A program made the translations under genes and the position numbers. Below, piece by piece: positions 2,768 to 61,204 of a stretch of DNA of 64,000 bases. The notes under the pieces were generated by a model, which ran no database searches, was not told where the DNA came from, and saw only the letters and a program-made list of their open reading frames with translations. The DNA is taken from positions 5,332,001 to 5,396,000 of the forward strand of contig JAGIQG010000016.1 in the NCBI GenBank assembly GCA_024679065.1, read 5' to 3'. Position 1 is the first letter of the stretch, and each line of letters begins with the position of its first letter. Source of the DNA: Sphyrna mokarran (taxonomy: Eukaryota).

Positions 2768-2802
2768 CTTTCCCTGGGATTTCTTAGCTTCTGCTTTGGA
2801 GT
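2768..2802 (-). CDS. Gene A exon: 35-nt cytoplasmic microexon (DSKAEAKKSQGK)
   Basis: Long pyrimidine tract + ccag acceptor, AAG|gtaagt donor. Same length and phases (1/0) as gene B exon 39748-39782. Confidence 0.8.
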
Positions 2803-59400: not shown

Positions 59401-61204
59401 ACCCTTTGTAATTTCTTGCGGTCTTGGGCAGAGCAGGGGCCATACCAAACTGTGATACATCTGGAAAGAATACTTTTGATGGGGGAATAGGAGGGGAGGG
59501 GTGCTTCAGGACCGAGGGAAATATTCGGAGCGGAGTGGTTTCTGGAGGTGGATTTGAAATGTAGCAAGGCGTGTGAAAAACTGGGCTGGCTGGGTTTCTG
59601 AAACCATCGATAGATGTTGGGAGGACGTTGTGTAGCAATGGTATCAAACAATTTCAGAGTCCAGACTGAGACAGCTCCATGTTGGAAACTGAATCTAATT
59701 AGCAGTAATGGGATCTTTAGCCTGTGTCACCGGGAGGTGTGATCTGAGTCCTAGCCTACGGTTGAGATAAAAACTTTGGTGCCATGCAGTAGGAAAAGGG
59801 CAGATGATATGGGCAGCACAATGGCACAGAGGTTAGGACCACCGTCTCCCAGCACCAGGGACCCTGGTTCGATTCCTGGCTTGGGTCACTGTCTGTGCGG
59901 AGTCTGCACATTCTCCCCATGTCTGCATGTGTTTCTCCGATTTCCTCCCACAGTCCAAAAATGTACAGCTTAAATGGATTGGCCATCCCAAATTGCCCCT
60001 GAGTGTCCCAAGATGTGTATGTTAGAGGGATCAGCGGGGTAAATGTACAGAGTTCTGGCTCTCGGGATTGGGGTGGGATTGTTGTCGGTGCAGACACAAT
60101 AGGGCGAATGGCCTGCTTCTGCCCATAGGGATTCTATCACACATCAGACCAGGACACTAGGATGATCTACAGGCTAAAGGACTGTAATGAATCCAGAGTA
60201 ATGAATCTGAGGCAAGGCAGGGCTATGGAAACAAATGAATTAGGGATGGATTGAGTGTCACAGAGCTGCATTAGTTTGAAGAAGACAGGGGAAGACCTTT
60301 GACAGAGCGAGTGAAGCGATTTGGAAAGTAACATGGACTAAGTGCCGAGGAGTCTCCCAAAATTCTCCAGCTCTGCGGATTTCCCTCACCTCTCTGTTAG
60401 TTAGAGATTGCCAGAGATTTATTGCTCAGAACAGTCCACCACAGGGTTCCTGCTACAGGAACAAAATATGATGCAATCCATTTTAAAATAACCCTCTCAA
60501 CTCCCATTCCCAACTGCTCAGCAAGCACTTACCATTAATAACCTGAAAATAACAAGATGAGCCGGAATGTGAACCGGATTCAAACATTAGAACGACGCAG
60601 CAATATTCCGATGATGATTGCAGAGATAATTGCCGGAATTTTGCTGCCTTGCCCACCCTATTCTGGGGCAGGCCAGGCTGGCAGGGCAGCATTCCCTGTT
60701 GGCCTTGGGCGAGCGAAACCTCAGGCAGGCGAGGTCATAAAATATCGACCATTAGGTTTTCACCAGGACGCACAGTCCAATACATTGTCCCCGTTTCCCA
60801 CCCTCTTTTATTACACTTAAACCCCCCACACACAGCAACAACGCTCCTGGGAAAATACATACCTACAATTGTCAAATTCATTGTTTTTTCATGATTTCCC
60901 TCAGGGAATAAAGTGAGCTCACACTTATACATTCCCTCATCCTGCATCTGCAAAGACTTTAATAAAATGGATCCATCCAATTGGGAATTGTTCCTGAAAA
61001 CTGTCCGACTGGAATAATGTGGATTTGAATTGTTGATCCCAAACTTATGGTGATATATAATGAAGGAAATATTTTCAGCATCTTTCTTCCAGGCAATTTG
61101 TACCAATCTTGTGTTGTTCTTTCCTGTTGCCTGACATAGGAGTGTCACCTCCGCCCCAGCAAACGCAGTGAGGGTCAGACCTGTAACCTGGTTCCCGGCT
61201 GTAA
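35287..61204 (-). CDS. Gene B: nectin/PVR/CD96-like 3-Ig membrane receptor with ITIM-like + ITSM tail; leader exon not found
   Basis: Exons 60863-61204, 56468-56761, 50485-50587, 47239-47378, 44010-44114, 39748-39782 and 35287-35403 are all GT-AG and join in frame to TAA at 35287-35289. Junction phases are the same as in gene A. Confidence 0.9.
35680..37476 (-). repeat. Same minisatellite in inverted orientation (continues at 39545-39725)
   Basis: accggttagtgtaaacactgcacataacacac units that become more diverged towards 37476. Confidence 0.95.
37821..39544 (-). mobile_element. Young CR1, 5'-truncated and internally rearranged, inserted in a minisatellite
   Basis: RT motifs PQGSVLGP and KFADDTK, one stop at 39190 and frameshifts near 38220-38410. 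TGTATATA flanks both ends (37813-37820 and 39545-39552). Confidence 0.93.
39748..39782 (-). CDS. Gene B exon: 35-nt cytoplasmic microexon ([12 protein letters not shown])
   Basis: Acceptor acaaacag (NAGNAG: cag|CAG), donor GAG|gtatgt. It supplies the phase 1 to phase 0 bridge needed between the TM and terminal exons. Confidence 0.82.
39853..41540 (+). repeat. C-rich polypyrimidine minisatellite (~39-bp unit ccaacctcccctcccccactctcccctcctcctgcctcc)
   Basis: Almost G-free 1.7-kb tract, G-rich on the transcribed (minus) strand. Confidence 0.95.
42770..43800 (-). mobile_element. Degenerate CR1 3' part interrupted by a SINE
   Basis: [17 protein letters not shown] and FTQRVV motifs, with a SINE at 43402-43660. 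Confidence 0.8.
44010..44114 (-). CDS. Gene B exon: transmembrane segment
   Basis: [34 protein letters not shown]. Acceptor catttcaaag, donor G|gtaagt, 105 nt. Confidence 0.92.
47239..47378 (-). CDS. Gene B exon: second half of third Ig domain
   Basis: [46 protein letters not shown]. Acceptor tttttccaag, donor G|gtattt, 140 nt, phase 2/1. Confidence 0.88.
47685..48290 (+). mobile_element. Rex1/Babar-like LINE 3' relic
   Basis: [18 protein letters not shown]...[13 protein letters not shown]...ITAWYG, with the same 3' end as the 3930-4955 copy. Confidence 0.7.
50485..50587 (-). CDS. Gene B exon: first half of third Ig domain
   Basis: [34 protein letters not shown]. Acceptor ttttcccccgtag, donor GG|gtaaat, 103 nt. 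Not in the ORF track. Confidence 0.9.
51637..52806 (+). mobile_element. Young 5'-truncated CR1 (321-aa open RT C-terminal part)
   Basis: [24 protein letters not shown] and [10 protein letters not shown] motifs with a (TTCTATG)n tail. Nested in an older LINE relic. Confidence 0.95.
53105..53222. mobile_element. Short MITE-like element with imperfect ~28-bp terminal inverted repeats, inside an HE1 SINE
   Basis: Left end gggattttaccagcacgtctgcccga resembles the reverse complement of the right end, agaattttactggcatgccagccccga. Confidence 0.4.
53720..55350 (-). mobile_element. Degenerate CR1 LINE, ~1.6 kb
   Basis: [16 protein letters not shown] and [14 protein letters not shown] in broken frames. 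Confidence 0.9.
55355..55790 (+). mobile_element. CR1 3' fragment
   Basis: [15 protein letters not shown]...[11 protein letters not shown]...[10 protein letters not shown]. Confidence 0.85.
56468..56761 (-). CDS. Gene B exon: second Ig domain
   Basis: VKPNNT...[17 protein letters not shown]...[12 protein letters not shown]. Acceptor ctcccccaag, donor T|gtaagt, 294 nt. Confidence 0.95.
60863..61204 (-). CDS. Gene B exon: Ig V-set domain
   Basis: VTLLCQ...LVQIAWKK...[27 protein letters not shown]. Acceptor tttgtgcag, donor G|gtatgt, 342 nt. Confidence 0.95.

Follow-up and report, generated by a model that had tools for sequence, protein, structure and literature searches.

A candidate inhibitory/activating receptor pair on a nectin-type scaffold in the shark Sphyrna mokarran

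Results

The window, by which we mean the whole 64,000-nucleotide stretch that was analysed, is C668:5332001-5396000, where C668 (in full G000:C668) denotes contig JAGIQG010000016.1; coordinates without a contig label are window positions. Two nectin-type genes, A and B, lie in it, both on the minus strand and both laid out as V-C-C ectodomain, transmembrane (TM) segment and tail. All junctions of the two genes are GT-AG, the spliced frames are open, and the junction phases are the same in A and B (1,1,1,2,1,1,0). The exons for the V domain (342 nt), the second domain D2 (294 nt), the cytoplasmic microexon (35 nt) and the last coding exon (117 nt) are equal in length, while those for the two halves of the third domain, D3a and D3b, and for the TM segment measure 103, 140 and 105 nt in B versus 118, 170 and 114 nt in A. 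A sequence-only reading of the window had reported the common strand, the phases and the equal V, D2 and microexon lengths, and was right on each; the lengths, however, are largely generic for nectins. A D2 exon of 294 nt is also present in nectin-2 of the same genome, and the leading nectin-3 V candidate measures 342 nt, so the equality of A and B mostly marks the family. The same reading contrasted very different V sequences with a shared 12-residue core. The core is indeed present in both genes and the V domains are only 36% identical (39/108), but D2 (41/97, 42%) and D3 (33/80, 41%) are nearly as different. The closest database proteins come from the shark Mustelus asterias, in which the two genes are merged, with their order preserved, in model P0001. 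Homologous proteins cited here are automatic gene models, of which P0001 is fused and two others are truncated.

The leader exon of gene A (17358..17406, 49 nt coding) matches Mustelus P0001 and is followed on the minus strand by exons for V (12913..13254), D2 (10810..11103), D3a (9149..9266), D3b (7498..7667), the TM segment (5039..5152) and the microexon (2768..2802). The last exon (C668:5331339-5331223, minus strand) lies 661-777 nt outside the window. A hydrophobic stretch near 23012 was considered as the leader and rejected, as it has no start codon and the exon ending at 17406 matches Mustelus instead. A direct repeat of 612 nt, 98.4% identical, flanks the D3b exon (5764-6375 and 7832-8443). 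The V domain retains both the AX6G lock and a TFP key, which agree with the lock (AX6G) and key (T(F/Y)P) motifs as defined for nectin/PVR V domains in the available part of PMC10486284. Of the tyrosine motifs, the last exon keeps only TVYATL; the second tyrosine has been lost, and the end is not of afadin type. Orthologs of gene A occur in skates (P0170/P0171) and in the electric ray Narcine (P0080), and the skate orthologs make the A/B split at least as old as the shark-ray ancestor. Loss in the tails of these orthologs is reciprocal: the proximal tyrosine survives in this shark and in Mustelus, the skates keep only the distal ITSM, and Narcine has neither. The three roles that had been proposed for gene A, a second inhibitory receptor, a ligand-like nectin or a motif-less partner, each fit imperfectly, given one tyrosine motif, an intact lock and key and no afadin end. 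Gene A is an older, slower paralog and likely a PVR/CD155-like ligand or a weak inhibitory receptor. No activating twin of gene A was found.

Gene B begins beyond the window with a leader exon at C668:5407718-5407667 (minus strand), 14.5 kb upstream of its V exon (60863..61204). The remaining minus-strand exons encode D2 (56468..56761), D3a (50485..50587), D3b (47239..47378), a TM segment whose core carries no charged residue (44010..44114), a microexon that matches Mustelus P0001 (39748..39782) and a last coding exon (35287..35403) with an ITIM-like motif, MVYATL, and an ITSM, TVYASV. The proximal motif has M at -2 and hence is not a strict ITIM; among inhibitory-type shark sequences a strict ITSM is found in eight of nine and a strict ITIM in six of nine. 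The V-domain lock of gene B starts with I, and LFP stands in place of a T(F/Y)P key; AX6G is preserved in several B orthologs. The tail exons are surrounded by minisatellites and a purine-rich repeat (34017-37478 and 39678-41577), and young LINE reverse-transcriptase fragments, 95-98% alike, are scattered across the locus (29771-30428, 37818-39342 and 51629-52807).

Both genes carry V-set and C2-set_2 domains according to Pfam, and nectin-1 is the best PDB match for both V domains (E 3e-16 and 8e-18). CEACAM was absent from the 44 PDB matches of one V domain and from the best 60 of 101 for the other. With a V domain, two C-type Ig domains and a TM segment, A and B are organized as nectin/PVR ectodomains and are closest to nectins. 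The possibility that they are ordinary adhesion nectins, nectin-1-like as the databases name them, draws on this PDB match, on the database names and on a clade of A with nectin-1 that survives the AU test (p-AU 0.12). Yet the classical nectins end in an afadin/PDZ-binding motif, E/A-x-Y-V, which the genome's nectin-2 has and which A, B and the twin B' described below do not. Nectin-1, -3 and -4 lie on other contigs, and nectin-2 occupies a separate locus of the same contig (C668:4712747-4762267, plus strand), some 570 kb away from gene A, and has two alternative TM/tail ends. Because all four classic nectins are located elsewhere in the genome, A and B are not their orthologs, and the tyrosine motifs conserved in the tails also speak against a purely adhesive role, which we regard as very improbable.

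Trees of the ectodomains group A with B only weakly (87/85 in the first tree, 53/82 in a reduced tree from which own_C2x, own_N4 and lamprey were dropped as long branches). In the first tree the two genes fall near the nectin-2/PVR group (93/93), a placement that has no resolution in the reduced tree. Mammalian PVR joins nectin-2 of mammals (100/99) rather than A or B, and the shark genes seem to represent a PVR-like design, a nectin ectodomain with an ITIM in the neighbourhood of nectin-2, that arose on its own in sharks. Apart from nectin-2, C668 holds apolipoprotein genes (4.41-4.43 Mb) and LIPE (7.31 Mb), a stretch that we take, from human gene order, to correspond to the 19q13 region. Searches for other synteny markers found CLPTM1-family matches on other contigs and none on C668, no TOMM40-family match on C668, and no TPI1 at all. 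A further PVR-family V exon lies at C668:8470121-8469777 (minus strand), with a TM candidate at 8463133 and no D2 found; it is most similar to the V-only ITIM/ITSM portion of Heptranchias P0012, and the gene is possibly a TIGIT/PVRIG-like receptor.

Four B-family V exons were found within 80 kb by searches of the genome. One belongs to B', an inverted twin of B that lies 79 kb away, outside the window, and did not figure in the sequence-only reading. The two genes stand head-to-head (orientation was checked in this genome only). On the plus strand of C668, the exons of B' start with the leader at 5463620 and continue with V (5472038), D2 (5475505), D3a (5480206), D3b (5483415) and a TM exon of its own (5484446), whose core is likewise free of charged residues. 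Three tail exons of 44, 30 and 44 nt encode YVN and YMSL-x7-YSEL. All B' exons have GT-AG ends and the frame is open; the last few codons lie either in a short terminal exon or in read-through. A phase-0 intron after Y+1 interrupts the first YxxL. The spacing conforms to the ITAM pattern YxxL/I-x6-8-YxxL/I, but there is no D/E at -3 (E sits at -2), and for this reason we call the motif ITAM-type. A secreted or truncated copy was considered and is ruled out by the TM and tail exons.

The in-window part of one inverted-repeat arm spans 47054..64000; the other copy carries B' (C668:5463620-5487188, plus strand). Homology between the arms stops about 185 nt beyond the D3b exon, ahead of the TM exon. 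From leader to D3 the exons of B and B' are identical at 921 of 931 nt, and 10 of 310 ectodomain codons differ (4 synonymous, 6 not), the sole V change being I67R within the lock motif. The TM exons, by comparison, match at 57/99 nt only. Between B and B' lie two mutually inverted, decayed B-family copies (C668:5419440-5429071, plus strand, and 5453102-5435270, minus strand), with a SINE-like insertion or a frameshift in D2 and damage in D3. The minus-strand copy keeps an activating-type TM and a first tail exon that has lost its tyrosine; no ITAM exons were found for it. The flanks that the sequence-only reading had pointed to thus hold the last exon of A, the leader of B and further paralogs. 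With these copies within 160 kb and a skate ortholog of A, its suggestion that A and B are ancient paralogs belonging to a cluster of immune receptors is sustained.

Evidence that B and B' are spliced as described comes from splice sites and from homolog models. The last exon of gene B was sought in public sequencing runs, among which no RNA run was listed; one run, whose status as RNA is a guess, holds 0.61 of the words of that exon. A single 1046-nt contig from this run fits the D3b exon only, with 5 other letters, the number that separates B from B' in that exon, and cover on D3a is thin. For B', neither the TM exon nor the first tail exon is covered in the same run, which says nothing either way.

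The identity of B and B' over aligned bases is 98.9% in exons, 97.8% within 300 nt of them, 95.8% at 301-1000 nt and 91.8% beyond 1 kb, and 150-nt bins fall to 77-87%. A peak on exons that decays into introns fits conversion tracts laid on an older inverted duplication, while the 91.8% identity far from exons indicates that a fairly recent inverted duplication contributes. Exons about 99% identical, next to two broken copies, might also be expected if B' were a false haplotype duplication in the assembly or a dead partial copy. Against this, B' has its own TM exon and three tail exons with intact splice sites, the intron blocks are 86-91% alike with different insertions, and activating-type models occur also in Mustelus, catshark, white, basking and zebra sharks. 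We consider an artefact or a dead copy most improbable.

For nine further shark species, ten with this one, B-family proteins could be retrieved. Both tail types are present in five of the ten (this shark, Mustelus, cloudy catshark, white shark and zebra shark), and in the other four of these the two members of the pair sit on contigs of equal length. Among the models retrieved, the basking shark has only the activating type and the small-spotted catshark, horn shark and sevengill only the inhibitory type; the bamboo shark model is partial. The activating-type sequences (n = 9) comprise six with a full YxxL-x7-YxxL, one with YxxV-x7-YxxL and two truncated models. Within species the V domains of the two types are 99% identical here, 97% in the catshark, 96% in the zebra shark, 97% and 89% in the white shark and 87% in Mustelus. 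V domains of the same type are 44-85% identical across species, and tails of opposite type are 28-37% alike.

Trees of the V domain and of D2-D3 join inhibitory and activating copies species by species, or within the Lamniformes (white and basking sharks), and the activating ectodomains require six changes on the tree. A single clade of activating ectodomains is rejected by the AU test (p 1.5e-9, 12 rows). The TM-plus-tail tree, in contrast, gathers all eight activating rows into a single clade (100/99). Some trees omit Narcine P0080, catshark P0010, Chiloscyllium P0023 and further partial models because these lack a domain. Tree incongruence, the AU test and the exon-centred identity point to concerted evolution of the B/B' ectodomain. 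A different history would be recurrent duplication with tail swapping, in which each lineage re-made the activating gene from the B ectodomain and an old ITAM cassette. The long inverted block from leader to D3b, alike even more than 1 kb from exons, and the two decayed copies between B and B' are what such birth and death would leave behind. It does not predict an identity mosaic that peaks on exons, however, nor an activating TM-plus-tail tree that largely follows species relationships, as one old orthologous gene would, and we think it unlikely.

The tail of B' has close relatives next door. Two head-to-head Ig genes of non-nectin type beside B' (C668:5513778-5526169, minus strand, and 5541495-5553194, plus strand) carry the same cassette, namely exons of 44 nt (encoding YVN) and 30 nt (ending Y-x) together with one that begins SLNL, and the intron sequence of the B' cassette can be aligned with theirs. 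Their TM exons are similar and they have YxN and YxxL-x7-YxxL, but their Ig exons are unlike those of B'. In the PDB these Ig exons find only weak matches (LAG-3, E 0.022; myomesin/contactin), and Atlas leads are generic V-set. The available text of a shark CD4/LAG-3 paper makes no mention of nectin or PVR (PMC10768021). Mustelus P0229, named "uncharacterized", is a one-V ortholog of one of the neighbours and carries the cassette. A degenerate cassette pattern, designed on these very exons and so not able to show absence of distant copies, hit three places in the genome, all within 66 kb. B' likely arose by the joining of a nectin ectodomain to the local ITAM exon cassette, which would be the direction of transfer. 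An intronless 347-aa reading frame resembling a 7-TM receptor, a GPCR by eye, lies between B' and these neighbours (C668:5499138-5500178, plus strand).

ITAM-pattern tails were seen in 7 of 141 proteins scanned (up to 900 aa): four shark models and three nectin-like models from a teleost (Metynnis, P0036), a turtle (Chrysemys, P0058) and a lamprey (Lethenteron, P0074). The last three may point to a class of activating receptors built on nectin ectodomains that spans the vertebrates and has gone unnoticed. A hagfish protein (Myxine, P0017) has ITIM and ITSM.

Gene B as a whole diverges fast between species. Its V, D2 and D3 are 84, 75 and 64% identical to Mustelus (91, 86 and 88% for gene A), and its V domain is 49% identical to the Heptranchias ortholog, versus 75% for nectin-2. 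The expectation that the V domain evolves faster than the rest finds no support in these values, and a simple arms-race reading is weakened because V is not the fastest domain.

Discussion

We consider it probable that B and its inverted twin B' form an inhibitory/activating receptor pair with matched ectodomains, probably maintained by repeated gene conversion. The ITIM-like motif and ITSM of B would recruit SHP-1/2-type phosphatases and damp the cell, while the ITAM-type motif of B' would engage kinases of the Syk/ZAP70 type and its YxN motif adaptors of the Grb2 type, with no charged-TM adaptor. Both receptors would see the same ligand.

The nectin family is used for entry by herpes-, polio- and morbilliviruses. 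A pathogen that binds the B ectodomain would meet in B' an activating decoy like human CEACAM3, and we lean, if only slightly, towards such a decoy as the selective reason for the pair. The alternative for this step is tuning to a host ligand, as for TIGIT/CD226; candidates would be nectin-2, the product of gene A and the PVR-family V-only protein encoded at C668:8.47 Mb. It is in keeping with the X6G lock-like and FP key-like motifs that B-family V domains retain, and with the presence of candidate ligands on the same contig. But B, with its LFP key, diverges much faster than nectin-2, and twins that are identical within a species yet drift between species fit an external, changing ligand better, so that host-ligand tuning seems doubtful to us. 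The decoy reading in its entirety is of a CEACAM1/CEACAM3-like system on a nectin scaffold, in which a local ITAM cassette was joined to a copy of an inhibitory receptor and conversion has preserved the match between the twins in three or more shark orders; taken jointly, these statements are tentative, with a chance a little below even.

In cartilaginous fish, activating and inhibitory receptors encoded in the germ line are poorly characterized, and the A/B family has been hidden under the automatic name "nectin-1-like". With ITIM and ITAM twins matched on nectin ectodomains, the paired receptors would gain a family that is not named among them in the literature searched; nor did that literature, which left most subscription papers and the supplements outside, contain a description of nectin-based ITIM/ITAM twins from sharks or other animals. 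The locus also provides a concrete case of an ITAM exon module common to unrelated ectodomains, and B and B' could serve as bait proteins in the search for a pathogen ligand and as markers that distinguish leukocyte subsets in sharks.

Four known systems invite comparison. TIGIT, CD96 and CD112R on one side and CD226 on the other are old, divergent paralogs with common host ligands. They resemble B and B' in having PVR-family V domains and opposing signals, which for B and B' are predicted from motifs, and differ in that B and B' are 99% identical twins. Gene A is closest to PVR/CD155, which, according to the part of PMC7286890 available, evolves fast and is found in placental mammals only; the two have in common three Ig domains, the lack of an afadin/PDZ end, a cytoplasmic ITIM and nectin-2 as a neighbour. 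Shark A and B nevertheless group apart from mammalian PVR, and literature searches found no ITAM-bearing twin of PVR.

Activating members of the Siglec and CD300 families use a charged TM segment and an adaptor. B' differs from them in its nectin scaffold, its uncharged TM core and its own ITAM-type tail. SIGLEC11/SIGLEC16 and CD300A/CD300C are nevertheless inhibitory/activating twins with matched ectodomains, and for the Siglecs conversion is stated in the portions available of the sources (PMC5701461, PMC12447643).

The likeness is greatest to CEACAM1/CEACAM3 and to the Xenopus ceacam pairs. In the accessible parts of the CEACAM papers, ITAM-bearing partners have a YxxL split by a phase-0 intron and a YxN motif (PMC5112662, PMC2832619), the Xenopus pairs lie in opposite orientation (PMC5112662), and ITAM-like motifs of eutherian CEACAMs also occur without D/E at -3 (PMC2832619). 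The shark locus has the same combination of an ITIM-plus-ITSM gene with an ITAM-type partner, YxN, a split YxxL and opposite orientation, and, as in CEACAM1/CEACAM3, a ligand domain apparently homogenised by conversion. The ectodomain of B and B', in contrast, is of nectin/PVR type, and homogenisation extends over leader, V, D2 and D3, as against the N exon in CEACAM. Both systems presumably belong to the same broad 19q13-type region.
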